Positions 3,305 to 63,099 of a DNA stretch of 64,000 bases are shown one piece after another; position 1 is the first letter of the stretch, and every line of letters begins with the position of its first letter. Made by a program: the position numbers and the translations under genes. The notes under the pieces were generated by a model. The model saw only the letters and a program-made list of their open reading frames with translations. It was not told the origin of the DNA and made no database searches. The stretch spans positions 60,010 through 124,009 of the forward strand of contig CBIHQV010000011.1 in NCBI GenBank assembly GCA_966212275.1. Reading direction: 5' to 3'. The stretch is from an uncultured Devosia sp. (GTDB lineage: Bacteria > Pseudomonadota > Alphaproteobacteria > Rhizobiales > Devosiaceae).

Positions 3305-4978
3305 ATGACCGCCACCTCGCTGATGACCGAGCCGAAGACGAGTGACGAAACCACCATCGATCGCGACTGGTGGCGCGGCGCGGTGATCTACCAGATCTAT
3401 CCGCGCTCGTTCCAGGACCAGAATGGCGACGGCGTCGGCGACCTGGTGGGCATTACCAGCCGGCTCGACTATGTCGCAGATCTCGGCGTCGACGCCATCT
3501 GGCTGTCGCCGGTCTTTACCAGCCCGATGAAGGATTTCGGCTACGACGTCTCCGACTATCGCGGCATCGATCCCAGCTTTGGTACGCTCGAAGATTTCGA
3601 CCGGCTGGTGCAGAAGGCCCATTCGCTGGGGCTCAAGGTCATCATCGACCAGGTGATCAGCCACTCCTCCGACAAGCATGCCTGGTTCGCCGAATCTCGC
3701 CAGTCCCGCACCAATCCGCGCGCCGACTGGTATGTCTGGGCCGACCCCAAGCCCGATGGCACGCCGCCCAATAACTGGCTTTCCATCTTCGGCGGCTCCG
3801 CCTGGCAGTGGGATAGCCGGCGCATGCAGTATTACATGCACAATTTCCTGGTCTCCCAGCCCGACCTCAACTTCCACAATCCCGATGTGCAGGAAGCCCT
3901 GCTCGGCGACATGCGCTTCTGGCTCGAACGCGGCGTCGATGGCTTCCGTCTCGATACGGTGAACTTCTATTTCCACTCGACGGGGCTCGAATCCAACCCG
4001 GTAGTGAAGCCTGAGGATTTCAACGCCTCGACCGCCCCGGCCGTGAACCCCTATAATTTCCAGGAACACCTGTTCGACAAGTCGCGGCCGGAGAACCTCG
4101 ATTTCCTCAAGCGCCTGCGCGCCATGATGGACGAATATCCGGGCACGACGACGGTCGGCGAAATCGGCGACAGCCAGCACCAGCTCGCGATCATGGCCCA
4201 GTACACCTCGGGGCACGACCGGCTGCACATGGCCTATACCTTCGATTATCTCGGTGGCGAATTCTCCGCCGGACATTTCAAGACCTCCATCGCCGCCACC
4301 GAAGCCGGCGCCCCCGAGGGCTGGATCTGCCTTGCTTTCTCCAACCACGATGTGGTGCGCCATGTGAGCCGTTGGGCAACGCATGGGCAGGAGGCGGCCT
4401 TCACCCGCCTCGCCGCCACGCTGATCCTCTGCATGCGCGGCTCGGTCTGCCTCTACCAGGGCGAGGAACTGGGCCTGAAGGAGGCCGAACTGGCCTTCGA
4501 GGACCTGGTCGATCCCTATGGCATCGAGTTCTGGCCGCAGTTCAAGGGCCGCGACGGCTGCCGCACGCCCATGGTCTGGCAGGCGCATGCCGCCAATGGC
4601 GCCTTCTCGACCGCCAACCGCACCTGGCTGCCGGTGCCGGCCGAACACCTGCTGCATGCCGTCGATACCCAGGACAATATCGACGGCTCGGTGCTCGAAT
4701 TCTACCGGGCGCTGCTGGTTTTCCGCAAAGCCCACCCGGCGCTGATCAAGGGTCGTATCGAACTCCTTGAGGCCGCCGACGCCGATGTGCTGGCCTTTAT
4801 TCGCGAGCACGAGGGCGAGCGCCTGCTGTGCGTCTTCAACATGAGCGACGCCGGCGCCGAATTCGCCGTGCCGGCGGGCCTGTCGCCAGCCAGCGCCGAC
4901 TGCCCCGGCGTCACCGCCGCAGTGATCGAGGGCGAAATAGACCTCGAGCCGTTCGGCGCCTATATCGGCGTGCTGTAG
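3305..4978 (+). CDS. aglA: alpha-glucosidase (GH13, oligo-1,6-glucosidase/AglA-like)
   Basis: 557 aa. WWRGAVIYQIYPRSFQD, GDLVGITSRLDYVADLGVDAIWLSP, GFRLDTVNF and EIGD are classic GH13 subfamily motifs. Confidence 0.9.
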   Translation: MTATSLMTEPKTSDETTIDRDWWRGAVIYQIYPRSFQDQNGDGVGDLVGITSRLDYVADLGVDAIWLSPVFTSPMKDFGYDVSDYRGIDPSFGTLEDFDRLVQKAHSLGLKVIIDQVISHSSDKHAWFAESRQSRTNPRADWYVWADPKPDGTPPNNWLSIFGGSAWQWDSRRMQYYMHNFLVSQPDLNFHNPDVQEALLGDMRFWLERGVDGFRLDTVNFYFHSTGLESNPVVKPEDFNASTAPAVNPYNFQEHLFDKSRPENLDFLKRLRAMMDEYPGTTTVGEIGDSQHQLAIMAQYTSGHDRLHMAYTFDYLGGEFSAGHFKTSIAATEAGAPEGWICLAFSNHDVVRHVSRWATHGQEAAFTRLAATLILCMRGSVCLYQGEELGLKEAELAFEDLVDPYGIEFWPQFKGRDGCRTPMVWQAHAANGAFSTANRTWLPVPAEHLLHAVDTQDNIDGSVLEFYRALLVFRKAHPALIKGRIELLEAADADVLAFIREHEGERLLCVFNMSDAGAEFAVPAGLSPASADCPGVTAAVIEGEIDLEPFGAYIGVL

Positions 4979-5363: not shown

Positions 5364-5459
5364 GTCATCCCGGCGAAGGCCGGGATCCATCCTGCGGTCT
5401 TTCTACGCCGCAGCGCGACCAGTCATCTCAGGATGGATTCCGGCCTGCGCCGGAATGAC
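5364..5459. repeat. family-1 palindromic intergenic repeat (double hairpin)
   Basis: GTCATCCCGGCGAAGGCCGGGATCCATCCTG...CTCAGGATGGATTCCGGCCTGCGCCGGAATGAC; near-identical modules to 319-406 and 45913-46030. Confidence 0.85.
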
Positions 5460-5585
5460 ATCGTGCTCGTGGGTGGATGGTGCCGCGTCCAGCTGCATGC
5501 GTGCCACCGACAGCCACACACGATCCCATCGGGAACCAAATCGCCTAAGCGGGCTTCTCTCCCTATTCTGGGAGGAAACACACGC

Positions 5586-6586: not shown

Positions 6587-6670
6587 GTCACCCTCGGGCC
6601 TGACCCGAGGGCTCTTCACTTACCGAACGCTCCGCAAGTACAGAGCCCTCGGGTCAAGCCCGAGGGTGAC
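6587..6670. repeat. family-1 palindromic intergenic repeat (CCCTCGGG sub-type)
   Basis: GTCACCCTCGGGCCTGACCCGAGGGCTCT...AGAGCCCTCGGGTCAAGCCCGAGGGTGAC; sister copy at 49195-49279. Confidence 0.85.
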
Positions 6671-10035: not shown

Positions 10036-10190
10036 ACCTCGCCCCTCCGGGGAGAGGTCGGCGCGCAGCGCCGGGTGAGGGGTGGGATGTTGCACAGCAC
10101 GCGGCGCGCTGGGCCAAGACCCCTCACCCCAGCTCTGCCAAGTCGCTGACGCTCCTGGTGGCGCTACCCTCTCCCCGAAGGGGCGAGGGT
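10036..10190. repeat. family-2 nested palindromic repeat (CCTCNCCCC/GGGGNGAGG hairpins)
   Basis: ACCTCGCCCCTCCGGGGAGAGGT ... GGGTGAGGGGT ... ACCCCTCACCC ... ACCCTCTCCCCGAAGGGGCGAGGGT. The two terminal hairpins are reverse complements of each other and an inner inverted repeat is present. Confidence 0.8.
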
Positions 10191-10210
10191 GCGTCGGGGC
10201 AAGGGCCGGA

Positions 10211-38437: not shown

Positions 38438-38460
38438 GGCTGAGATCGCAGGGTGTGGGT

Positions 38461-38614
38461 CCTCTCCCGTTCACGGGAGAGGGGGACCACGCAAAGCGTG
38501 GTGGAGAGGGGAGCCCCACGCACAAATAGTCGGGTGGTGCTCATTCACGGCCCTGTGCGAAGGGCTCCCCCTCCACCGCCTATCGGCGGTCCCCCTCCCC
38601 CGCAGGCGGGGGAG
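38461..38614. repeat. family-2 palindromic repeat cluster
   Basis: CCTCTCCCG-TTCA-CGGGAGAGG; GGGGGACCACGC-AAA-GCGTGGTGGAGAGGGG; ...CCCCCTCCCCCGC-AG-GCGGGGGAGG. Kept open by chance in the ileS frame. Confidence 0.8.
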
Positions 38615-38716
38615 GACAGCCCGCAACTCCGCCGCTCGCCCCAAATCATCCTTTGCCCCTTCCGCCCCGCCTTGCTAAAAGGCGCGCAAATCTTCCCATT
38701 TCGATTGCCGTTTCCC

Positions 38717-41689
38717 ATGACCGATACCGCCGCGGGCACCACCGAAACCGATTATTCGGCCACGCTGTTCTTGCCGGAGACTGAATTCCCCATGCGCGCC
38801 GGGCTGCCCGAGCGCGAGCCGGGCTGGCTCAAGCGCTGGGAAGAAATGGACATTTATGCCCTGCAGCGGGAGCAGGCCAAGGACAGGCCGCTGTTCACCA
38901 TCCATGACGGCCCGCCCTATGCCAATGGCAATATCCATATCGGCCACGCGCTCAACAAGACGCTGAAAGACCTCGTTTCCCGCTCCATGCAGATGCTGGG
39001 CTACAACTCGGCCTATGTGCCGGGCTGGGACTGCCATGGCCTGCCCATCGAATGGAAGATCGAGGAACAGTACCGCGCCAAGGGCAAGGACAAGAACGAA
39101 GTTCCTGTCGTCGAATTCCGCCAGGAATGCCGCACCTTTGCCGAGCAGTGGGTCGATATCCAGCGCGAGGAATTCAAGCGCCTGGGTGTGCTGGGCGAGT
39201 GGGACAATCCCTATCTCACCATGAGCTTCGATGCCGAAGCCCAGATCGCTCGCGAGCTGATGAAGGTGGCCAGCACCGGCCAGCTCTATCGCGGTTCCAA
39301 GCCCGTGATGTGGTCGGTGGTCGAGCGCACGGCTTTGGCCGAAGCCGAGATCGAATATGCCGACTACGAGAGCGACACCATCTGGGTGAAGTTCCAGACC
39401 TCGCATATCGCGGCTGCCGCCGGATCGGACGTCCAGGACAATATCGATCGCCGCGAGCACCTGACTGGTGCCTCGGTGGTCATCTGGACCACGACGCCCT
39501 GGACCATCCCCGCCAACCGCGCCATCAGCTTCTCGTCCAAGGTCGCCTATGGCCTCTATGAGGTCACCAAGGCGCCAGACGGCAATTGGGCTTCGACCGG
39601 CGAAAAGTATGTGCTGGCCGACAAGCTGGCTGCCGAAACCTTCGCCAAGGCCAAGGTCGAGGAATTCGTCCGTCTGCAGGACGTGCCGCCGGCCGTTCTC
39701 TCGGGCCTCCAGTGCCATCACCCGCTGCGCGGGCTCGGCGGCGGCTACAATTTCGAAGTGCCGCTGCTCGATGGCGAACACGTCACCGACGATGCCGGTA
39801 CCGGCTTTGTCCACACCGCGCCCGGCCATGGTCTCGACGACTTCGAGATCTGGATGAATTCGGCGCGCCTGCTCGGTGACAAGGGCATCGACACCGCCAT
39901 CCCCTATGTGGTGGGCGACGATGGTTTCTATACCAACGAGGCCCCCGGTCTCGATGGCGGCCGTGTCATCGACGACAACGGCAAGAAGGGTGACGCCAAC
40001 AACCGCGTCATCACGGCGCTGGCCGAGCGCAACGCCATGGTCGCGCGCGGCCGGGTAAAGCATCAGTATCCGCATTCCTGGCGCTCCAAGAAGCCGGTGA
40101 TCTTCCGCAACACGCCGCAATGGTTCGTCTATATGGACCGCGATATCGACGGCGCTGCGGGCGACACGCTGCGCTACCGTGCGCTCAACGCCATCGACGC
40201 CACCAAGTTCTACCCGGCCGCCGGGCAGAACCGCCTGCGCGCCATGATCGCCGACCGCCCGGACTGGGTGCTCAGCCGTCAGCGCGCCTGGGGCGTGCCG
40301 ATTACGGTGTTCGTCGAAAAGGCGACCAACGAAATCCTTCGTGACGACGCGGTCAATCACCGCATCGCGCAGAGCTTCGAGGAAGAAGGCGCCGACGCCT
40401 GGTACAAGCCCGGCGCCGCGGCTCGCTATCTCGGCGCGGGGCGCAATCCCGACGATTTCGAGATGGTCACCGACGTGCTCGACGTGTGGTTCGACAGTGG
40501 TTCGACCCATGCCTTCGTGCTGCGCAACAAGCAGAAGTGGCCGCATCTCAAATTCCCGGCCTCGATGTATCTCGAAGGCTCCGACCAGCATCGCGGCTGG
40601 TTCCATTCGTCGCTGCTCGAAAGCTGCGCCACCAATGGTCACGCCCCCTATGAAAGCGTGCTGACGCACGGCTTCACCATGGATGGCGAAGGCCGCAAGA
40701 TGAGCAAGTCGCTGGGCAACACCGTCGCCCCGCAGGACATCATCAAGCAGTATGGCGCCGATATTTTGCGCCTCTGGGTCGCGTCGTCGGACTATTCCGA
40801 GGACCTGCGCCTGGGCAAGGAGATCATCCAGACCACGGTCGACAGCTACCGCAAGCTGCGCAACACCCTGCGCTGGCTCTTGGGCAATCTCGCTCACTAT
40901 CAGGCGTCCGACGAAGTGCGCTTCGAGGACATGCCCGAGCTCGAGCAACTGATCCTCCATCGCCTGGCCCAGCTCGATGAGCAGGTGGGCGGCGCCTACA
41001 AGGACTATGACTATCGCAAGATCGTCACCCTGCTGACGAACTTCATGAATATCGAGCTCAGCGCCTTCTACTTCGATATCCGCAAGGACACGCTCTATTG
41101 CGATCCCATCAGCTCGATCAAGCGCAAGGCCGCGCTGACCGTGCTGCACCACCTGTTCGATTGCCTCACCGCCTGGCTGGCGCCCATCCTTGTCTTCACC
41201 ATGGAAGAAGTCTGGCTGGAGCGGCATCCGGAGGCCGGCTCGTCGGTGCATCTGCGCCTGTTCCCCGAAGTGCCGAGCGAATGGCTCAATGAGGGTCTCG
41301 CCAGCAAGTGGACGCTGATCCGCGCGGTGCGCCGCGTGGTCACGGGGGCGCTCGAAATCGAACGCCGCGAAAAGCGCATCGGCTCATCGCTCGAGGCAGC
41401 GCCCAAGGTGTTCATCACCGACGAGCGCTACCTCACGGCTCTGGCCGGCGAAGATCTGGCCGAAATCGCCATCACCTCGGCCATCGAGATCGGCAATGCC
41501 GACGCGCCGCCCGAGGCGTTTACGCTGGACGACGTTCCTGGCGTCGCGGTGGTTCCGGCTCTCGCCCAGGGCACCCGCTGCGCCCGCTCGTGGAAGGTTC
41601 TGCCCGAGGTCGGTTCCGACAAGGACTATCCCGACGTCTCCCCGCGCGACGCCCAGGCCCTGCGCGAACGCGCCGCGGCGGGTTTGTAG
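38717..41689 (+). CDS. ileS: isoleucine--tRNA ligase
   Basis: [12 protein letters not shown] (HIGH), KMSKSLGN (KMSKS), and the editing and anticodon domains. Start at [28 protein letters not shown] (ATG 38717). Confidence 0.95.
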
Positions 41690-43335: not shown

Positions 43336-45219
43336 ATGAAAGACCGCCAGATGAGCGACACTGCTCCCGCCAAACCCGATACCGGCGACCGCCTCGCCAA
43401 GGTCATTGCCCGCTCCGGCCTCTGCTCCCGCCGTGACGCCGAGGTGTGGATCACCGAAGGCCGTGTTGTGGTCAATGGCAAGAAGGTGCTGACCCCGGCC
43501 TTCAACGTCACCGACCGCGACAAGATCATGGTCGATGGTGCCCCGCTCGCCGCCCGCCAGGGCACGCGCGTCTGGCTCTACCACAAGCCCGCGGGCCTGG
43601 TGGTCACCGAGAAGGACCCCGAGGGTCGCGAGACCATTTTCCAGCATCTGGAAACCCACGGCCTGCCGCGCGTCGTCACCGTCGGCCGCCTCGACATCAA
43701 TACCGAAGGCCTGCTGCTGCTGACCAATGACGGCGGCCTCAAGCGCGTGCTCGAACTGCCCGCCACCGGCTGGCTGCGCCGCTACCGCGTGCGCGCCCAT
43801 GGCACCGTCACCCAGGCGGCGCTCGACAAGCTCAAGGACGGCATCGAGATCGATGGCATCAAGTATGGCTCGATCGAAGCCACGCTGGAGCGCGAGCAGG
43901 GCTCCAATGTCTGGCTCGTGCTGGCCTTGCGCGAAGGCAAGAACCGCGAGGTCAAGAACGTGCTGGGCGCGCTCGGCCTCGAGGTCAATCGCCTGATCCG
44001 CACCAGCTATGGCCCGTTCCAGCTCGGCGATATTCCGGTGGGCGGCGTCGAGACCATCAAGGCCAAGATGCTGCGCGACCAGCTCGGCAAGAAGCTGGCT
44101 GATGCGGCCGATGTCGATTTCGACAGCGAAATGCCCGAAGCCAACGCGCTCGAAGGCAAGCCGACCCGCGACCGCCTGACTGGCCGTGGTACCAATACGG
44201 TCGAGATCGCCCGCCAGCGCTTCCGCTTCACCGATGGTGCGGAAAAGACCGAGGAAGAGCTCCGCGCCGATCGGCCGCGCCAGGATCGCCCCGGTCGCTT
44301 CGATAGCCGCAAGCCGGCCACCAAGCGCGAAGAGTCCCGCGACGACGAATATGCGCCGCCGCCCCGCCGCGTGCATTTTGACGAAGACGGCCGCGCGCCC
44401 GAGGAATTCGTGGCCAAGCGCAACACGCGCATCGTCAAGCGCCCCGATCGCGACGACCAGTCCGCCCTGAGCTATGGCAAGGCCGCGCCGCGTCCCGCCG
44501 GTGGCAAGAAGCCGTTTGGTGACAAGAAGCCCTTTGGCGAGAAGAAGAGCTTCGGCGACAAGAAGCCGTTCGAAAAGAAGCCCTTCGGCGACAAGACCCG
44601 CGGCCCGCGCCGCGATGACGATCGTCGTCCCGCCGGTGCACGCGGTGGCGCCGAACGCAGCGAACGCCCGGCCGGCAAGTCGTTTGGTGGCCGTCCCGAA
44701 GGCGGCGCACGTCTGCCGCGTGGCCGTGAATTCACCGGCACGCCGCGTGGTCCGCGCCGCGATGAAGCCGGCGCCGGCGAGCGCCCGGCCTTCGCGCCGC
44801 GCGTTCGTCCCGATAGCGAGCGCGGCGAAGGCGCTGCCTTCAAGGGCGAGGCCAAGCGCCCCGGCCGCAACTTCGCCGACAAGCCACAGGGCGGTCGCAG
44901 TTTTGCCGAACGCGCCGATCGTCCGGCACGCGGCGCCCGCCCGGAAGGCAAGAGCTTCCGCCCCGATGGCGACCGTCCGGCCCGTCCGGGCCGCGACAAC
45001 CTGGGCTCCGAGGCCAAGACCTATGGCAAGCCCAAGACCCGGCCCGACGGCAAGCCCTATCCCAAGCGCGACGGCGCCGCGCCGCAGCGTGGACCCAAGC
45101 CCGGCGGCTACGGCAAACCGGCCGGCGGTCGCCCGAGCGGTGGAGCGGGTCGCCCGACTGGTGGTCGTCCGGCAGGTGGCGCTGGTCGTCCGTCTGCGCC
45201 GCGTCGGCCCAAGGCCTGA
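43336..45219 (+). CDS. rluB: 23S rRNA pseudouridine synthase (RluB/RsuA family) with a roughly 370-aa Arg/Gly/Lys/Pro-rich C-terminal tail
   Basis: S4 domain (RLAKVIARSGLCSRRDAEVWI), catalytic VTVGRLDINTEGLLLLTNDG, then a low-complexity basic tail with KKPFGDKKPFGEKKSFGDKKPFEKKPFGDK. Confidence 0.85.
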   Translation: MKDRQMSDTAPAKPDTGDRLAKVIARSGLCSRRDAEVWITEGRVVVNGKKVLTPAFNVTDRDKIMVDGAPLAARQGTRVWLYHKPAGLVVTEKDPEGRETIFQHLETHGLPRVVTVGRLDINTEGLLLLTNDGGLKRVLELPATGWLRRYRVRAHGTVTQAALDKLKDGIEIDGIKYGSIEATLEREQGSNVWLVLALREGKNREVKNVLGALGLEVNRLIRTSYGPFQLGDIPVGGVETIKAKMLRDQLGKKLADAADVDFDSEMPEANALEGKPTRDRLTGRGTNTVEIARQRFRFTDGAEKTEEELRADRPRQDRPGRFDSRKPATKREESRDDEYAPPPRRVHFDEDGRAPEEFVAKRNTRIVKRPDRDDQSALSYGKAAPRPAGGKKPFGDKKPFGEKKSFGDKKPFEKKPFGDKTRGPRRDDDRRPAGARGGAERSERPAGKSFGGRPEGGARLPRGREFTGTPRGPRRDEAGAGERPAFAPRVRPDSERGEGAAFKGEAKRPGRNFADKPQGGRSFAERADRPARGARPEGKSFRPDGDRPARPGRDNLGSEAKTYGKPKTRPDGKPYPKRDGAAPQRGPKPGGYGKPAGGRPSGGAGRPTGGRPAGGAGRPSAPRRPKA

Positions 45220-45331: not shown

Positions 45332-45895
45332 ATGCGCATCGTCGCCGGCAAATTCCGCGGCAAGCAACTGACCTCGCCCTCGGACGATTCCATTCGCCCG
45401 ACGGCCGACCGTGTGCGCGAGTCGATGTTCAACATCCTCGCCAGCCGCCTCGGCCCGGTCTTTTCCAATATTCGCGTGCTCGACCTCTTCGCCGGCACCG
45501 GCGCGCTGGGCCTCGAAGCCCTGTCGCGCGGCGCCAGCCACGTCACCTTCGTCGACACCGGCGCCGAAGCGCGCGGCCTGATCCGCGATCACATCGAGGC
45601 CTTCGGGGCAGGGGGCATCACCAAGCTGCTGCGCCGCGATGCCACCGACCTCGGGACACCAGGCACGTTCGGGCAGTTCAATCTGGTCTTCCTCGATCCG
45701 CCCTATGGCAAGGGGCTGGGCGAACAGGCACTGGCCCACATCGCCGCCAATGGCTGGCTGGCGCCTGACGCGACCATCGTCTTTGAAGAGAGCGTCGAGG
45801 CGGCGGTGGAAATCCCCGAGGGCTTCACGCTGGATGACCGCCGGGAATATGGCGCGGCGGCGGTGCATTTTCTGACTTTTGGCGGGAACACATAA
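45332..45895 (+). CDS. rsmD: 16S rRNA (guanine966-N2)-methyltransferase
   Basis: MRIVAGKFRGKQL..P....RPT.DRVRE..FNIL, DLFAGTGALGLEALSRGA, FLDPPY. Confidence 0.9.
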   Translation: MRIVAGKFRGKQLTSPSDDSIRPTADRVRESMFNILASRLGPVFSNIRVLDLFAGTGALGLEALSRGASHVTFVDTGAEARGLIRDHIEAFGAGGITKLLRRDATDLGTPGTFGQFNLVFLDPPYGKGLGEQALAHIAANGWLAPDATIVFEESVEAAVEIPEGFTLDDRREYGAAAVHFLTFGGNT

Positions 45896-45912
45896 GTCGC
45901 CACAAACGCGAT

Positions 45913-46030
45913 GTCACCCCGGCCTCGAGCCGGGGCCCATCCCGAGATCGCGGCGCAGCCGCAAGGTGGCGCTCTTATCCCGACATCTCAGGATGGATCC
46001 CGGCTCAAGGCCGGGATGACACCGGGTGTG
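45913..46030. repeat. family-1 palindromic intergenic repeat (double hairpin)
   Basis: GTCACCCCGGCCTCGAGCCGGGGCCCATCCCGAGAT...ATCTCAGGATGGATCCCGGCTCAAGGCCGGGATGAC. Confidence 0.85.
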
Positions 46031-49194: not shown

Positions 49195-49279
49195 GTCACC
49201 CTCGGGCTTGACCCGAGGGTCCTAAACTTCCTTCCGCACGGAGCAAGTAAAGAACCCTCGGGTCAAGCCCGAGGGCGAC
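49195..49279. repeat. family-1 palindromic intergenic repeat (CCCTCGGG sub-type)
   Basis: GTCACCCTCGGGCTTGACCCGAGGGT...AACCCTCGGGTCAAGCCCGAGGGCGAC; sister of 6587-6670. Confidence 0.85.
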
Positions 49280-50556: not shown

Positions 50557-50663
50557 CACCCCACCCTCGGTCCCTCCCCATCAAGGGGAGGGAGGCGCTA
50601 GATGCGATGCCGGTGTTCATCGTCTCCCTCCCCCTTGTGGGGAGGGATCAAGGGTGGGGGTGG
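50557..50663. repeat. family-2 palindromic repeat, full-length copy
   Basis: CACCCCACCCTCGGTCCCTCCCC-ATCAA-GGGGAGGGA ... TCCCTCCCCC-TTGT-GGGGAGGGATCAAGGGTGGGGGTGG. Confidence 0.85.
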
Positions 50664-50686
50664 TTTGGGCAGGCGGCGGCTGGGAG

Positions 50687-52000: not shown

Positions 52001-52035
52001 CCGCCACCCCCTCGGGAGCGTAACTCTGGGCCTGT

Positions 52036-52218
52036 GTTGGTTCCCGAAGGCCGTTGTGCCGGAGGGATCAAAAGGGAACACGGTGCGACGTACCCATCAG
52101 GGCGCAAAACCGTGGCTGCCCCCGCAACTGTAAGCGGTGCGCTCCCCTCTCATGCCACTGGCGCAAGCCGGGAAGGCGAGGGGAGTGGCTATCACCGCGA
52201 GCCAGGAGACCTGCCAAC
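52036..52218 (+). promoter_or_regulatory. cobalamin (AdoCbl) riboswitch
   Basis: P1 GTTGG/CCAAC closes the element. Core elements AAAAGGGAACACGGTG, GCTGCCCCCGCAACTGTAAGCGG, GCCACTGG, GGGAAGGC and the B12 box AGCCAGGAGACCTGCC are all present, upstream of cbtB. Confidence 0.9.
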
Positions 52219-52271
52219 GCACGAACCGGGGCGCTTGCGCCTTCTCTATTCCGCGCACGGAGGGTGCTGCC

Positions 52272-54320: not shown

Positions 54321-54767
54321 ATGTCCCGGCGCGATCTGTGGCTCGGCCTGGTATCGGTATTCGTCGGGCCGCTGATCGGCGGCGTGACCTTCATTGCCGC
54401 CGCGATTGCCATCGACGCCATGGTCTATGGCGAGGGGACGCCCAATTTCATGGCGCAGCACTGGCCGATCATCCTGACCGCTGGCTACGTGTTTGGGACC
54501 ATACCAGGGTTGGTCTTTGCCGTGATCATTGCCGTGCTGTCGCGCCGCATCGCCGCCCTGCGGCAGCGCCTGCTGGTTGCCGCCATCGTGGGGGCTGTCG
54601 TCAGCGTGGGGTTGCTGAGCCTGGTGCTCTTCGGCGGGTCGCTGTCGGGACTTGATCCGGTGGTGGCGGCAGCGCTGGGCATCACCGGCGCGGTGGCGGG
54701 CGTCATCAGCCTGGGCCTGGTCGAATTCTTCCATCCGCTGCCAGCGCCGGCAAAAGCCGCACCCTGA
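54321..54767 (+). CDS. hypothetical 4-TM membrane protein embedded between cobW and cobN
   Basis: 148 aa. The ATG is 2 nt after the cobW stop, and its TGA overlaps the cobN ATG (TGATG). No known motif. Confidence 0.6.
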   Translation: MSRRDLWLGLVSVFVGPLIGGVTFIAAAIAIDAMVYGEGTPNFMAQHWPIILTAGYVFGTIPGLVFAVIIAVLSRRIAALRQRLLVAAIVGAVVSVGLLSLVLFGGSLSGLDPVVAAALGITGAVAGVISLGLVEFFHPLPAPAKAAP

Positions 54768-57700
54768 TGCATCTCCTCTCCGCCCAGGCCGGCGCTATCC
54801 AGCAGGAAGGCGAGGCCATCGATCTCAACCAGCGCCCCGGGGCGCTGGTCTTTGCCAGCTCGGCCGATAGCGAACTGGCCATGCTGGCCGGCGCCGCCGA
54901 CCGGGCAGGGGAGGCCGAACTCCGCCTCGCCAACACGCTGCGGCTCTCCAACAATCTCTCGGTTGATCTCTGGCTCGAAGAGACCGTCGCCCTGGCGAGC
55001 CTGGTCGTCCTCCGCCTCATTGGCGGCGCGGCCTATTTCCAGTATGGCGTCGACGAGCTGACGGCGCTCTGCGCCAACCGCCGGATACCGCTGGCGCTGC
55101 TGCCGGGCGACGCCAATCCCGACCCCATCCTGCAATCGCGCTCGACCGTTCATCCGGACGATTGGACGATGCTCCACAGCCTCTTCATATCCGGCGGCCC
55201 CGACAATGCCGACACGATCCTGACGGCGCTTAACTTGCTCTCTCTCCCTTTGGCGGAGAGGTCAGCCGCAACGCGGCCGGGTGAGGGGGCCTTGCTCAGC
55301 GATCTTTCGCCCCAACCCTTCGCCCGCTTCGGCCTCTGGCATCCCGGTACGGGCATGACCGACGAAGCCGGCCTGCGCGCCATCCAACAGGCTGGCGCGG
55401 CTCATGTCCCGATCCTCTTCTACCGCGCCGCCCTCGAAGGCGCCGGTACCGCCACGATCGAAGCGCTGATCGCTGAGCTCGAAGCCCAGGGCCTCGCCCC
55501 GGCCCCCTTGCTGGTCTCCTCTCTCAAGGAGGGTCCGTGCATCCGCTTCGTGCAGGACGCGCTGGCCGCCTTCCCGCCTTCAGCCATCTTCAACCTCACA
55601 GGCTTTGCCTTGGGCATTGATGGCCTCGACGACAAATCCAACCCGTTCTCCGGCAGTGACGCACCGGTCATCCAGCTTATCCAGTCAGGCCGCTCGGAAG
55701 CGCAGTGGCTGGCCGACAGCCAGGGCCTCTCCTCCAAGGACATGGCCATGTTCCTCGTCATGCCCGAAGTCGACGGCCGTCTGGGCGGCCTCATCGTCGG
55801 CCACAAAGCCGACGCCATCTGGCACAACCGCTGCCAGGTGCCACTGACGAGCTATGCGCCAGACACTTCGGGCATCACCCGGGCTGTGGTCCTTGCGAAA
55901 AACTGGGCAAGGTTGAGGGCCGCCCCCCGCGCCGACCGAAAAGTCGCGCTAGTGCTGGCGAATTACCCCATTCGCGACGGGCGGTTGGCCAATGGCGTGG
56001 GCTATGACGCACCGGAGTCGACGGTGCGCATGCTGCGGGAATTGGAGAGGGCGGGCTACACCACGACCCCCACCCCCCACCCCTCCCCTCAAGGGGGAGG
56101 GGAATCCGATCCTGCCCAAACCAATGCCACGTCTCCTGCGCATCCCTCCCCCTTGAGGGGAGGGACCGAGGGTGGGGGTTCTGCAGGCTCCGCATACCCG
56201 ACATCGTCGGAAGCCCTCATCGCCCTCCTGCAATCCGGCCCCACAAACGCCGAGCCCGCTCGCGGCGCCTCACCGGCACGGTTGTCGCTGGCGCGCTATG
56301 CCGATCTCTTCGCCACGCTGCCGGTGAAAATCCGCGACGAGGTCACCACCCGTTGGGGCCACCCGGCCACCGATCCGTTCGTGCGGAGCGATACCTTCCA
56401 CCTGCCCGCCCTCATCTTCGGTAATGTCGCTATCCTGCTCCAGCCGGCCCGTGGCTATCAGCTTGATGAGACCGCGTCCTACCACGATCCGGCGCTCGTC
56501 CCGCCGCATGCCTATCTGGCGGCCTATCTCTGGCTGCGCCACGAGTTCGGTGCCCATGCCCTGATCCACAATGGCAAGCACGGCACGCTCGAATGGCTCC
56601 CGGGGAAGGCGACGGCGCTGGACGCCGCGAGCTATTCCGACGCGCTCTGGGGCCAGTTGCCCCATCTCTACCCCTTCATCGTCAACGACCCCGGCGAAGG
56701 CACCCAGGCCAAGCGGCGCGCCGGCGCCGTCATCATCGATCACCTCGTGCCGCCGCTGACGCGCGCCGAAACCTATGGCCCGCTGAAAGACCTCGAAGCC
56801 CTGCTCGACGAATATTACGCCGCCTCCGGCATGGACCGCCGTCGGCTGGCCGACCTCAAGCGCCGCATCCTCGACTTCACTCGCGATAGCCGCCTCGATC
56901 GCGATATCGGCCTGCCCGAGGACGAGACACAGGCGCTGATCAAGATCGACAACTTCCTCTGTGACCTCAAGGAAGCCCAGATCCGCGATGGCCTGCATGT
57001 GTTCGGTAAATCGCCCCAAGGCGACCTGGAGCGTGACCTGATCGTGGCGCTGGCCCGGGTGCCGCGCGGCGAGGGGCAGGGCGAGGGTTCGCTCATCCGC
57101 GCATTGGCCGATGATCTGAAGCAGGGCTTCGATCCGCTCACGGCCAAGCTCGGCGAGCCTTGGACGGGGCCGACCACAAGCCTCACTCCCTCCCCTCGAT
57201 GGGGAGGGATCGAGGGTGGGGTGGGGCCGCGCACGCTGGGCGATGTGGTGGAATTTCTCGAATCCATCGCCTCCGACCTCGTCGATGGCACCCGCATGGT
57301 CGATCCTGCCTGGACCGCCACATCGGCCGTCCTCGAGACCATCGACACCCTCATCCGCCCCCGCCTCGCAGCCTCCGGTCCTGCCGAAATGGCCGCGTTG
57401 ATCGATGGCCTCGACGGCAAATTCATCCGACCCGGCCCCTCCGGCGCCCCCTCGCGCGGGCGGCTGGACGTATTGCCCACCGGGCGCAATTTTTACTCGG
57501 TCGATAGCCGCGCCGTGCCCACCCCAACCGCCTGGGAACTGGGCCGCAAATCCGCTGAAAGCCTCGTCCTCCGCCATCTGCAGGATCATGGTCATCACTT
57601 GCGCTCGGTGGCCCTCTCTGTCTGGGGCACCGCCAATATGCGCACCGGCGGCGACGACATCGCCCAGGCCATGGCGCTGATCGGCGCCCGCCCCACCTGG

Positions 57701-58645
57701 GACCCGGGCTCGCTGCGCGTCTCGGGCTACGAGATCATCCCGCTGGCCAAGCTCGGCCGGCCGCGCGTCGACGTCACCCTGCGCATATCGGGCTTCTTCC
57801 GCGACGCCTTTCCGGCCCAGATTGCCCTGTTCGATCGCGCCATCCGCGCCATCGGTGCGCTCGATGAACCGACCGAGGACAATCCTATCGCCGCCACCAT
57901 GCGGACGGACGCGCTCGGCCTGATCGCCGCCGGAGAAAGCGACAGCGCCGCCGGACACCGCATCTTTGGCTCAAAACCCGGCACCTATGGCGCTGGCCTC
58001 AATGCGCTGATCGATTCCGGGACCTGGTCGACAAAGGCCGATCTCGCCAACCGCGCCCTCGATTGGGGCCAATATGCCTATGGCGCCCAGGATGCCGGCA
58101 TTGCCCAGCGCGACCGCTTCGCAGCTCGCCTGAGTGACATCGACGCGGTCATCCACAACCAGGACAATCGCGAGCACGACCTGCTCGACAGCGATAATTA
58201 CTACCAGTTCGAGGGTGGCCTAACCGCTGCCGCCGAAACGCTGACCGGGCGCAAGCCTGCCGCCTATCACAACGACCATTCGCGCCCCGAGCGCCCGCTG
58301 ATCCGCACGCTGGAAGAGGAAATCTCCCACGTCATGCGCTCCCGCGTGGTCAATCCCAAATGGATCGCGGGCATGCAGCGCCACGGCTATCGCGGCGCCT
58401 TCGAGATCATCGCCACGGTCGATTTCATGTTCGCCTTCGCCGCCACCACGGGCGCGGTCAAGACGCACCATTTCGACCTCGCCTTCGAGGCCTTCGTCGA
58501 GGACGACGCCGTGCGCGACTGGCTGAAATCGGCCAACCGCTACGGCTATGACGAGCTCATCGCCAAGTTCAACGAGGCAACCAGGCGCGGCCTGTGGACC
58601 CCTCGCTCCAACTCCGCCTATGCTTTGCTAGCGGGGGACCAATGA
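54767..58645 (+). CDS. cobN: aerobic cobaltochelatase large subunit CobN (carries three in-frame palindromic-repeat insertions)
   Basis: 1292 aa. MHLLSAQAG..., GYDAPES, HGTLEWLPGK, DHLVPP, PSGAPSRG, and the CobN/Mg-chelatase-H-type C-terminal half. Confidence 0.95.
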   Translation: MHLLSAQAGAIQQEGEAIDLNQRPGALVFASSADSELAMLAGAADRAGEAELRLANTLRLSNNLSVDLWLEETVALASLVVLRLIGGAAYFQYGVDELTALCANRRIPLALLPGDANPDPILQSRSTVHPDDWTMLHSLFISGGPDNADTILTALNLLSLPLAERSAATRPGEGALLSDLSPQPFARFGLWHPGTGMTDEAGLRAIQQAGAAHVPILFYRAALEGAGTATIEALIAELEAQGLAPAPLLVSSLKEGPCIRFVQDALAAFPPSAIFNLTGFALGIDGLDDKSNPFSGSDAPVIQLIQSGRSEAQWLADSQGLSSKDMAMFLVMPEVDGRLGGLIVGHKADAIWHNRCQVPLTSYAPDTSGITRAVVLAKNWARLRAAPRADRKVALVLANYPIRDGRLANGVGYDAPESTVRMLRELERAGYTTTPTPHPSPQGGGESDPAQTNATSPAHPSPLRGGTEGGGSAGSAYPTSSEALIALLQSGPTNAEPARGASPARLSLARYADLFATLPVKIRDEVTTRWGHPATDPFVRSDTFHLPALIFGNVAILLQPARGYQLDETASYHDPALVPPHAYLAAYLWLRHEFGAHALIHNGKHGTLEWLPGKATALDAASYSDALWGQLPHLYPFIVNDPGEGTQAKRRAGAVIIDHLVPPLTRAETYGPLKDLEALLDEYYAASGMDRRRLADLKRRILDFTRDSRLDRDIGLPEDETQALIKIDNFLCDLKEAQIRDGLHVFGKSPQGDLERDLIVALARVPRGEGQGEGSLIRALADDLKQGFDPLTAKLGEPWTGPTTSLTPSPRWGGIEGGVGPRTLGDVVEFLESIASDLVDGTRMVDPAWTATSAVLETIDTLIRPRLAASGPAEMAALIDGLDGKFIRPGPSGAPSRGRLDVLPTGRNFYSVDSRAVPTPTAWELGRKSAESLVLRHLQDHGHHLRSVALSVWGTANMRTGGDDIAQAMALIGARPTWDPGSLRVSGYEIIPLAKLGRPRVDVTLRISGFFRDAFPAQIALFDRAIRAIGALDEPTEDNPIAATMRTDALGLIAAGESDSAAGHRIFGSKPGTYGAGLNALIDSGTWSTKADLANRALDWGQYAYGAQDAGIAQRDRFAARLSDIDAVIHNQDNREHDLLDSDNYYQFEGGLTAAAETLTGRKPAAYHNDHSRPERPLIRTLEEEISHVMRSRVVNPKWIAGMQRHGYRGAFEIIATVDFMFAFAATTGAVKTHHFDLAFEAFVEDDAVRDWLKSANRYGYDELIAKFNEATRRGLWTPRSNSAYALLAGDQ
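55239..55290. repeat. family-2 repeat fragment inside cobN (site 1)
   Basis: CTCTCTCCC-TTTGG-CGGAGAGG ... GGGTGAGGGGG, the same modules as 10036-10190. Translated in-frame as LSLPLAERSAATRPGEGA. Confidence 0.6.
56067..56178. repeat. family-2 repeat, full-length copy inside cobN (site 2)
   Basis: CCCCCACCCCCCACCCCTCCCC-TCAA-GGGGGAGGGG ... TCCCTCCCCC-TTGA-GGGGAGGGACCGAGGGTGGGGG, collinear with intergenic copy 50557-50663. Translated as PTPHPSPQGGGESDPAQTNATSPAHPSPLRGGTEGGGS. Confidence 0.85.
57187..57226. repeat. family-2 repeat, half copy inside cobN (site 3)
   Basis: TCCCTCCCC-TCGAT-GGGGAGGGATCGAGGGTGGGGTGGGG; translated as PSPRWGGIEGGVG. Confidence 0.8.
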
Positions 58646-62960: not shown

Positions 62961-63040
62961 CGTGGCCCAGTGCCTCCCTACGGCCAATGTGCCTATTCCT
63001 CCGCTCTCTCTCAAGCCTGCCGTGAACATGTGGCGATGGA

Positions 63041-63076
63041 CCCCCACCCCCAGCCCCTCCCCTCAAGGGGGAGGAG
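63041..63076. repeat. family-2 repeat, half copy
   Basis: CCCCCACCCCCAGCCCCTCCCC-TCAA-GGGGGAGGAG in the cobK/cobA divergent region. Confidence 0.8.
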
Positions 63077-63099
63077 AGCCGTGCATCGAGTTCCTCCCC

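Follow-up and report, generated by a model that had tools for sequence, protein, structure and literature searches.

In-frame REP-like repeats in the cobN gene of a Devosia and their association with DUF559 nuclease genes

The 64,000-nucleotide stretch of an uncultured Devosia sp. analysed here (the window) carries a cobN gene for the large subunit of cobaltochelatase, in which an initial annotation had recognised three in-frame palindromic repeats (Table 1). The gene is a normal cobN and not a pseudogene, as had been presumed there: its reading frame is intact, its product scores 1141 bits against the Pfam CobN-Mg_chel profile and 1427 bits against TIGR02257 cobalto_cobN (cut-off 822), the operon has its cobalamin riboswitch, and the gene order cbtB-cbtA-cobW-x-cobN-x-cobO is kept in relatives. 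Devosiaceae yielded 120 CobN orthologues with 73-87% identity to the window protein. Scanning cobN for terminators and promoters returned nothing at the inserts, and no terminator-like T-run lies 3' of the hairpins.

Table 1. Features of the window, with positions counted from its first nucleotide.
Feature	Position	Strand	Description
Intergenic inverted doublet of the site-1 family	10036..10192		Site 1 aligns locally to the copy at 10036
Intergenic doublet of the cobN-insert family (family 2)	50557..50663		Between convergent genes; -86.9 kcal/mol, z -7.7
Cobalamin riboswitch	52021..52232	+	Rfam RF00174, 124 bits; heads the operon containing cobN
cobN ORF	54767..58645	+	Intact; encodes the 1292-aa large subunit of cobaltochelatase and carries the insertions
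Site 1	55241..55291	+	Degenerate second-family unit: CTCTCCC..GGAGAGG, followed by another small hairpin and by GGGTGAGGGG; translated as SLPLAERSAATRPGEGA
Fourth hypervariable CobN loop	55388..55405	+	aa 208-213; no insert in the window, whereas orthologues have as many as 59 additional residues
Site 2, left unit (L)	56065..56102	+	CCCCACCC module and hairpin CCCCTCCCC-TCAA-GGGGGAGGGG; read TPTPHPSPQGGGE
Site 2, spacer	56103..56143	+	Read SDPAQTNATSPAH
Site 2, right unit (R)	56144..56186	+	Hairpin CCCTCCCC-CTTGA-GGGGAGGG, ACCGA, GGGTGGGGG, tail TTCTGC; read PSPLRGGTEGGGS
Site 3	57185..57226	+	Solo R unit; read TPSPRWGGIEGGVG
Intergenic solo L unit	63039..63077		Between divergent genes that, from their ORF translations, read as cobK-like and cobA-like

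The inserts are built from a REP-like unit, a hairpin whose C-run/G-run stem measures 8-9 bp and which is followed by a G-tract (GGGTGGGGG or GGGTGAGGGG), and two such units in inverted orientation make up a REPIN-like doublet. Unit L is the reverse complement of unit R, which gives terminal inverted repeats as in a MITE, and the whole doublet folds as a long hairpin. Allowing at most two mismatches, the motif CCCTCCCC-N5-GGGGAGGG has 7 matches in the window against 0.08 expected, a count reached by none of 100 shuffles: two in the intergenic doublet of family 2 (50572 and 50626), two at site 2 (56081 and 56144), one at site 3 (57188), one in the intergenic solo unit (63055) and one in a copy of the other family (10169). 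In a comparison of the repeats across the window, 56142-56192 and 57186-57236 aligned to 50624-50674 at 75-76% identity and 56065-56103 to 63039-63077 at 92%. A TCGTCT tag precedes the R hairpin of the intergenic doublet (50617-50622). An Rfam search returned no family matching the repeats. SRM-like hairpins are also present elsewhere in the window and belong to a different family from the cobN inserts.

With 75-92% identity to intergenic copies, and an alignment score of 41 for site 1, the three cobN segments are indeed in-frame copies of dispersed palindromic repeats, and the peptides quoted for them in the initial annotation match the cobN translation exactly. Its striking 'three hits in one gene' stands as a count of copies and not as three recent landings: site 1 is old, site 3 is a reduced doublet, and site 2 belongs to a locus where 22 of 120 orthologues have a DUF559 nuclease gene. 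Site 1 scores 41 in local alignment to the copy at 10036 (shuffles 15.6 +/- 2.3, with 0 of 1,000 reaching 41). Its hairpin has decayed (fold z = -0.7), its orthologous counterpart in L001 is better preserved at the DNA level, and the segment is missing from P0029, P0030, P0031, P0048 and P0064; it is an ancient and degraded copy that came down with the gene and is common to relatives.

Site 2, by contrast to the solo unit of site 3, is a complete inverted doublet of 114 nt. It had been described as a full-length copy collinear with the doublet at 50557-50663, and the alignment bears this out apart from the spacer, which by eye, and with no statistic attached, is about 60-70% alike to the doublet spacers of L004 and L003. 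Its two units pair as a hairpin of about 45 bp and the doublet folds at -77.2 kcal/mol (z = -6.2), in keeping with the strong mRNA hairpin that had been expected. The R unit is free of stops in four of its six frames and has GCGCAT in place of the CGTC tag. No target-site duplication was recognisable at the junction of filled and empty site 2 in the window and L001. The half copy proposed at site 3 is a solo R unit, as claimed, and its origin lies in a doublet: DNA comparison with L001 shows that a 57-nt in-frame deletion between repeated CTC(T/C)CCCC arms left the unit and removed the CGTC tag as well. L001 still has the site 3 doublet, with a mismatch in the stem, and P0002, P0005, P0010, P0011, P0012, P0014, P0015, P0023 and P0032 have it in full.

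The solved CobN structure 9uk9 offers no homologous residues at the three sites, the outcome anticipated if these are insertions: its residues 422-424 face residues 435-476 of the window CobN at site 2, and at sites 1 and 3 the alignment opens gaps, 14 and 8 residues long. Near-minimal loops exist among Devosia orthologues at every insert site, and together with these gaps they confirm that the positions tolerate changes in length. Across the 120 Devosiaceae proteins four CobN loops vary from near-minimal to +59 aa, and at site 2 to as much as 230 aa, each site being vacant in some orthologues and occupied by unrelated repeat families in others; peptides encoded by family 2 occur at site 2 in 39 of the 120, at site 3 in 21 and at site 1 in 14. 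An AlphaFold2 model of residues 100-1292 is poor (mean pLDDT 58, pTM 0.49) and draws sites 2 and 3 as low-confidence coil (339-375 and 708-719), as it does many other segments; this weak model and the length variation among orthologues weakly suggest that the inserts occupy surface loops. The units are read in different frames in different orthologues (PSPLRGG.., SLPLEGR.., PPLKGEG), and it is therefore the DNA element that is conserved, not the peptide. In the window cobN, length-tolerant loops contain three in-frame, non-autonomous copies of GC-rich REP-like elements.

Genic copies are rare, amounting to about 2% of 110 testable R units that a DNA-pattern scan of metagenomes yielded, with about 98% intergenic. 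A codon-position (GC3) test was passed by one of the 110 (L067, recognised by eye as CobN), and a looser open-frame screen combined with Pfam added L039, also CobN, with no other host among the candidates checked. A word-index peptide search for in-frame copies gave zero matches, and an exhaustive HMMER peptide search gave five, namely four ORFs of repeat arrays or DUF559 tails and one apparently unrelated 626-aa repeat protein; neither search is informative on host genes. For 125 metagenomic R units the consensus reads TCGTCT-CCCTCCCC.., with a stem starting TC..GA and a tail AYCRA-GGGTGGGGG; in the 12 nt upstream, 62 of these units have CGTC and none has GTAG, and a partner hairpin lies within 130 nt of 41 of 130 R units.

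Twenty-two of the 120 Devosiaceae CobN proteins carry, in frame at site 2, a whole DUF559 (Vsr-like PD-(D/E)XK) nuclease, flanked by the same units as make up the cobN inserts, which are read here as TPTPxPSPQGGGE and PSPLRGGxxGGG. In these carriers Pfam PF04480 and PF18741 are located inside PF02514, and at the DNA level L002-L010 show the flanking hairpins. The embedded nuclease matches the solved DUF559 structure 3hrl (E = 3e-18) and NF007294 (E = 1.4e-22, below the equivalog cut-off), and keeps the motif ADFA.H..KL(V/I)IE(L/V)DG..H. It falls into lineages A and B, each showing purifying selection (dN/dS = 0.11-0.27, a range that leaves out L002); nuclease distances track CobN distances in type B (r = 0.65, p = 0.0005), with r = 0.22 and p = 0.11 in type A. 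The gene occurs in two arrangements, within the doublet and beside it. A tblastn search found no DUF559 gene in the window. The reading of the doublet as a type A element shortened by internal deletion was set aside as unproven, the similarity of the spacer to the DUF559 5' end being non-significant (best p about 0.01-0.07, most about 0.5).

The association extends to free-standing DUF559 genes, 19 of 25 of which are flanked by inverted repeats of 35-75 nt whose score was reached by none of the control pairs (150-220 per locus). These repeats are built alike, as a C/G hairpin with a G-tract, while their sequence differs from lineage to lineage, and they accompany DUF559 in Alpha-, Beta- and Gammaproteobacteria and in a Planctomycetota MAG; the free-standing proteins likewise have repeat-encoded tails. 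The density of GC-rich hairpins is 2.30 per kb up to 250 bp from the ends of DUF559 and 0.26 per kb in the rest of the same loci. Three of the four DUF559 genes in family-2 loci adjoin an exact R unit. Of the 130 R units, only 3 have a DUF559 gene next to them.

The DUF559 link suggests a nuclease partner, of putative activity, for the repeats. DUF559 genes could equally insert beside pre-existing repeats, which we counted against such a partnership, as we did the small number of R units with a DUF559 neighbour and the lack of a DUF559 gene in the window. On balance, the REP-like copies in cobN are probably tied to a DUF559 nuclease-repeat system. The dispersed repeats and the DUF559 genes would together form a system analogous to RAYT-REP and Ssn-SRM, in which the nuclease would recognise the unit of hairpin and G-tract and, by acting on it, would let orphan units spread or persist. 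The site 2 doublet of the window may then be the remainder at a locus that gained or lost the nuclease gene, and selection would act as a filter, cobN copies surviving only where the loop tolerates them, the frame has no stops and the length is a multiple of three. A wider proposal, which we advance tentatively and with rather more doubt than confidence, is that DUF559 represents a third class of repeat-associated nuclease after RAYT and Ssn, each DUF559 protein co-evolving with its own inverted repeats of C/G-run hairpin and G-tract, which might explain much of the GC-rich REP-like repeats and repeat-encoded tails of Alpha- and Betaproteobacteria; in Devosiaceae it would be a long-lived, intein-less passenger in CobN that leaves doublets and solo units where it is lost.

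Among known enzyme-repeat pairs the closest are RAYT-REP and Ssn-SRM. Ssn proteins are GIY-YIG single-strand nucleases flanked by their own hairpin repeats, the SRM (CGTCATTCCCGCG..GCGGGAATC-like) (PMC11893778). As in both systems, inverted hairpin repeats border a small gene for a single-domain nuclease, the repeats also exist as hundreds of orphan copies, and doublets fold into long hairpins. Neither the tags nor the genes point to RAYT itself: GTAG is absent upstream of the 125 units, and the genes found between the units are DUF559. The enzymes differ also in fold, DUF559 being a Vsr-like PD-(D/E)XK protein of putative activity versus the HUH tyrosine transposase of RAYT or the GIY-YIG domain of Ssn, and a DUF559 gene can persist in frame within a host enzyme.

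That last property recalls inteins and homing endonucleases, which share with the embedded gene a nuclease domain in frame at one fixed site of a conserved host and the coexistence of filled and empty alleles; the Vsr/DUF559 clade includes a proven group I intron homing endonuclease, I-Bth0305I (3r3p) (PMC3424549), to which the embedded DUF559 is marginally similar (E = 0.48). Unlike an intein, the carriers have PF02514, PF04480 and PF18741 as the only domains in their precomputed Pfam annotation, which lists no Hint or splicing domain, so the nuclease would stay part of CobN. Unlike homing, there is no co-conversion signal in their cobN flanks. Homing with co-conversion was accordingly rejected, the flanks being no more alike than expected (p = 0.09 for type A and 0.44 for type B).

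The most serious alternative, which we consider unlikely, is that the repeats are ordinary REP-type elements spread by other means (a transposase, an Ssn-type nuclease, or slippage and recombination) and that DUF559 is an independent selfish gene inserting in or beside them, as several IS elements target REPs, in which case the cobN copies owe it nothing. Orphan units vastly outnumber nuclease-linked ones, and the presence of DUF559 inside the site 2 doublet in some carriers versus beside it in others looks like insertion into a resident doublet. The CGTC tag in the family-2 consensus (62/125) is moreover a mark of the REP superfamily described by Di Nocera et al. 2013 (PMC3733652). CGTC likewise opens the SRM repeats that Ssn nucleases cut, and Devosia figures among the SRM-rich genera (PMC11893778). 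Against this, the like-built, lineage-specific repeats at DUF559 genes across phyla fit co-evolving pairs better, the survey of CGTC REPs found no transposase flanked by them and concluded that they have no dedicated one (PMC3733652), and the TC..GA stem and long G-tract tail are unlike the design of CGTC-1 to CGTC-4 or SRM.

Family 2 resembles CGTC REPs in other respects. These elements predominate in Alphaproteobacteria, and GTAG and CGTC REPs and their dimers occur in frame in genes of many bacteria, encoding 20-30 aa and sometimes present twice per gene (PMC3733652, where cobN is not mentioned). Family 2 shares with CGTC REPs the stems of 8-9 bp, loops of 4-5 nt, head-to-head dimers, a mostly extragenic distribution chiefly between convergent or co-directional genes; its consensus has the tag (TCGTCT), of which 62 of 125 copies carry the CGTC, and in doublets the tagged ends face the spacer. 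It differs in lacking the A-T pairs that start the stem (positions 1-2) of CGTC-1 to CGTC-4, in its tail, a G-tract module of about 14 nt and not a 3-nt CCA, and in the untagged copies of the window cobN.

Rickettsia palindromic elements (RPE; Ogata et al. 2000, 2002, summarised in PMC10969869) are palindromes of about 100-150 bp that occupy intergenic DNA and also lie in frame within unrelated genes, where they are tolerated as extra peptide segments whose presence varies among orthologues. The site 2 doublet is similarly palindromic and in frame, leaves the ORF intact and has filled and empty orthologues. The host here, however, is a free-living, GC-rich soil alphaproteobacterium, and we do not assign the units to RPE-1 to RPE-10, from which their composition is very different. 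The unit is a C/G-run hairpin with a G-tract, the repeats are linked to a nuclease gene, and genic copies make up about 2% and are concentrated in one host protein, whereas some RPE families are nearly half genic. The novelty that the initial annotation saw in the in-frame insertion of this kind of palindrome thus falls away beside the described GTAG/CGTC REPs, in addition to RPE; in the literature we found no description of a DUF559-repeat association, and it is there that the finding appears to be new.

A second alternative, that the host has taken the inserts over, with hairpins regulating cobN mRNA (its stability or translational pausing) and the peptides or nuclease domain serving CobN, could draw on the long retention of the embedded nuclease under purifying selection, on the strong mRNA hairpin of the site 2 doublet and on CobN being the sole genic host found in the sample. 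We regard it as highly improbable: every site is empty in some orthologues and occupied by unrelated families in others, one unit is read in different frames, the hairpins decay (z = -0.7 at site 1; stem mismatch at site 3 of L001), and no terminator-like T-run follows them. Native Pro/Gly-rich linkers, an assembly artefact or a decaying pseudogene, for which the linker-like composition of the peptides might speak, are refuted by the palindromic structure and 75-92% DNA identity to intergenic copies, by the lack of the segments in solved CobN, by the recurrence of the same loci in dozens of independent genomes and MAGs, and by an intact, strongly conserved ORF in kept synteny.

As in-frame REP insertion is already known, cobN alone adds one clean, well-documented example. 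The larger question is which enzyme, if any, makes the GC-rich REP-like repeats of Alphaproteobacteria; Ssn nucleases (2025) explain the SRM type only, and the flanking of DUF559 by hairpin and G-tract units offers a concrete candidate enzyme. The gene is also a natural experiment on the load of foreign peptide that a large metabolic enzyme can bear, which here reaches a folded nuclease of 170 aa, with a solved homologue structure, more than 100 filled or empty orthologues and four permissive loops, the fourth of which, like the DUF559 link, the initial annotation had missed.

The cobN gene of the window contains, as the initial annotation had claimed, three in-frame copies of dispersed palindromic elements (sites 1, 2 and 3, from 5′ to 3′). 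Family 2, the repeat family of sites 2 and 3, has the motif CCCTCCCC-N5-GGGGAGGG, of which the window contains seven occurrences where 0.08 would be expected; the left (L) unit of site 2 shares 92% identity with the intergenic unit 63039-63077, and the right (R) unit of site 2 and the site 3 unit are 75–76% identical to 50624-50674. For site 1, alignment with the 10036 unit yields a score of 41, compared with 15.6 ± 2.3 for shuffles. Against a solved CobN lacking the repeats (9uk9), residues 435-476 have no counterpart, and both site 1 and site 3 coincide with gaps of the alignment. Profile searches with the host protein gave 1141 bits for Pfam CobN-Mg_chel and 1427 bits for TIGR02257. Its closest homologues are Devosia CobN proteins (up to 87% identity), which places the window in a Devosia species, and no indication of a cobN pseudogene or replacement copy was found.

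Features of the cobN region and variable CobN loops among 120 Devosiaceae proteins
Feature	Position	Strand	Detail
cobN ORF (1292-aa CobN)	54767-58645	+	ORF call and profile matches
Cobalamin riboswitch RF00174 (124 bits)	52021-52232	+	Heads operon with cobN, upstream of cbtB-cbtA-cobW-x-cobN-x-cobO; gene order common to four relatives
Site 2 doublet	56065-56186	+	Collinear with intergenic doublet 50557-50663, spacer excepted
Loop of site 1	aa 159-177		Aligned segment 10-57 aa; filled in window
Further loop	aa 208-213 (55388-55405)		Aligned segment 8-65 aa; empty in window
Loop of site 2	aa 434-478		Aligned segment 7-235 aa; filled in window
Loop of site 3	aa 802-822		Aligned segment 9-63 aa; filled in window

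Each repeat unit consists of a hairpin (C-run/G-run stem of 8–9 bp, loop of ~5 nt) followed by a short linker and a G-tract. In family 2 it takes the form CCCTCCCC-loop-GGGGAGGG-AYCRA-GGGTGGGGG; in the family of site 1, CTCTCCCC-loop-GGGGAGAGG is separated from a following GGTGAGGGG by another small hairpin. A doublet, made up of two inverted units, folds at −77.2 kcal/mol (z = −6.2) in cobN and −86.9 kcal/mol (z = −7.7) in the intergenic copy, with four and two of six frames free of stops, respectively. Since no T-run was found 3′ of the hairpins, they are not intrinsic terminators. For 125 metagenomic R units the consensus reads TCGTCT-CCCTCCCC-CTTGT-GGGGAGGG-ATCAA-GGGTGGGGGT, with an exact CGTC at most 12 nt upstream in 62, and plasmids of Pannonibacter, Aminobacter, Methylobacterium, Rhizobium and Nitratireductor carry the same family without annotation. 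With its four G-runs, the G-rich half of the R unit (GGGGAGGG-ACCGA-GGGTGGGGG at 56153-56178, 57197-57226 and 50635-50660) formally qualifies as a G-quadruplex motif, and the complementary strand has the matching C-run (i-motif) sequence.

The CobN loops are long-standing insertion hot spots. Alignment of 120 Devosiaceae CobN proteins revealed four loops of widely varying length, outside which hardly any insertions or deletions occur; every loop is near-minimal in some orthologues and elsewhere filled by peptides of at least eight distinct repeat families. At aa 208-213, orthologues are extended by as many as 59 residues, which derive from further repeat families including RPHGEPVEPRGRA, PSPYQGEARRGY and SSSPGLSRQSMDHRD, the last resembling the Ssn-related motif (SRM). 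Across genes, one family-2 unit is read in several frames (PSPLRGG.., SLPLEGR.., PPLKGEG), and selection would pass only inserts that are stop-free, a multiple of three in length and situated in tolerant loops. DNA comparison with the relative L001 shows site 1 to be orthologous to a better kept unit, its hairpin having decayed in the window (z = −0.7), and site 3 to be the L001 doublet minus 57 nt between repeated CTC(T/C)CCCC arms, an in-frame deletion. In the clade closest to the window, site 2 is empty in P0005 and P0009, has an L-DUF559-R arrangement in P0004, carries a doublet in the window and P0003, and shows part of the right unit in P0002 and a shorter remnant of that unit in P0020. 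The initial interpretation was right at its core, although these loop and site histories show that it overstated the independence of the three hits. It also overstated their novelty: in-frame palindromic insertions are established for RPEs, as summarised in PMC10969869, and for GTAG/CGTC REPs of many bacteria, among them dimers encoding 20–30 aa and a pair of insertions within a single gene (PMC3733652). The latter work identified no enzyme dedicated to CGTC REPs, and cobN does not appear in it.

Many relatives maintain an in-frame DUF559 gene, of a Vsr-like PD-(D/E)XK nuclease family, within cobN. The complete domain (PF04480 + PF18741) lies at site 2 in 22 of the 120 orthologues, arranged as L-DUF559-R (type A) or R-DUF559-L-spacer-R (type B, the first R sometimes missing). 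It retains the motif ADFA.H..KL(V/I)IE(L/V)DG..H, with dN/dS of 0.11–0.27 at saturated dS, and embedded copies are closer to one another than to free-standing ones. Nuclease distances correlate with those of CobN for type B (r = 0.65, p = 0.0005) but not clearly for type A. The embedded domain matches the solved DUF559 protein 3hrl (E = 3e-18) and, marginally, the homing endonuclease I-Bth0305I; PMC3424549 assigns the two to a single clade. By eye, the window's site 2 spacer is ~60–70% alike to those of two other doublets, in L003 (type B) and L004. As the riboswitch lies upstream of the cobN operon, repeats and embedded nuclease would be transcribed under B12 control in carrier species. In D. 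yakushimensis cobN (L002, 4496-4510) and some type A carriers an ATG stands 8 nt after the GGAGG of the L hairpin arm, so that the nuclease could be translated on its own; five of the 13 type A copies retain the encoded Met, the others having Leu, Ser or Tyr. In a Devosiaceae MAG (L010, CANU assembly, ~3360-3540) the cobN frame ends 60 codons past the embedded domain, so that the gene is a pseudogene with a frameshift or else affected by a long-read error.

Beyond cobN, repeats of the hairpin plus G-tract design likewise flank DUF559 genes. Across 31 genomic loci, perfect GC-rich hairpins reach 2.30/kb within 250 bp of DUF559 ends, nine times their density elsewhere (0.26/kb), and 19 of 25 free-standing DUF559 genes lie between inverted repeats of 35–75 nt of this design, whose score was reached by none of the control pairs drawn from these loci. 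Tails encoded by such repeats are also seen on free-standing DUF559 proteins in Alpha- and Betaproteobacteria. Four DUF559 genes occur in 831 kb around metagenomic family-2 units, three of them adjoining an exact R unit (~7.5% by chance). By analogy with RAYT-REP and Ssn-SRM, we infer that DUF559 is a candidate partner nuclease of these repeats, and the window copies would be remains at a locus shaped by such a system; the main rival explanation is that DUF559 genes merely insert beside repeats already there. No description of a DUF559–repeat link was found in the literature searched; the present analysis adds this association, together with the nuclease read in frame at site 2, and each is a candidate novelty. 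In P0241, a 210-aa protein from the representative library, the DUF559 C terminus is followed by three tandem R-like plus L doublets (SPSPLAGEGRGGG .. TPTPDPSPQGGGEQK), so arrays of doublets can trail the nuclease gene.

Among 110 metagenomic R units checked for an in-frame genic position, one passed a codon-position (GC3) test (L067, CobN by eye). A looser open-frame screen gave 23 candidates; four were run through Pfam and the rest, judged by eye, seemed spurious. The four comprise a CobN (L039), two without a family and an Extensin-like_C protein (L060), in which the element precedes the domain by a wide margin and is therefore read as upstream of the gene. Genic copies are thus rare (~2%), and these two screens, with Pfam applied to 4 of the 23 candidates, found no host besides CobN. 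L039 (metagenome contig Ga0207789_1000085) encodes a more distant, non-Devosia-like CobN with an in-frame family-2 R-spacer-L doublet in its N-terminal region, between the FxRFGLW- and ILFYRAA-equivalent motifs.

The window also holds repeats of other kinds. Hairpins ATCCCGGC-loop-GCCGGGAT of a different family, flanked by TGTCA(T/C) and GGATGGAT (300-427, 5367-5481 and 45894-46017), resemble the SRM of GIY-YIG Ssn nucleases; Devosia is among the SRM-rich genomes (PMC11893778). A third palindromic doublet family, CCCTCGGG-loop-CCCGAGGG, forms two inverted pairs at 6591-6666 and 49198-49275. GC-rich hairpins CCTCTCCC..GGGAGAGG and CCTCCCCC..GGGGGAGG (38461-38482, 38594-38615) lie at the beginning of a stop-free stretch of 1081 codons (38444-41689, + strand), probably upstream of the true start and outside the gene. 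Tandem 18-nt repeats at 44488-44592 encode KKPFGD-type peptide repeats.
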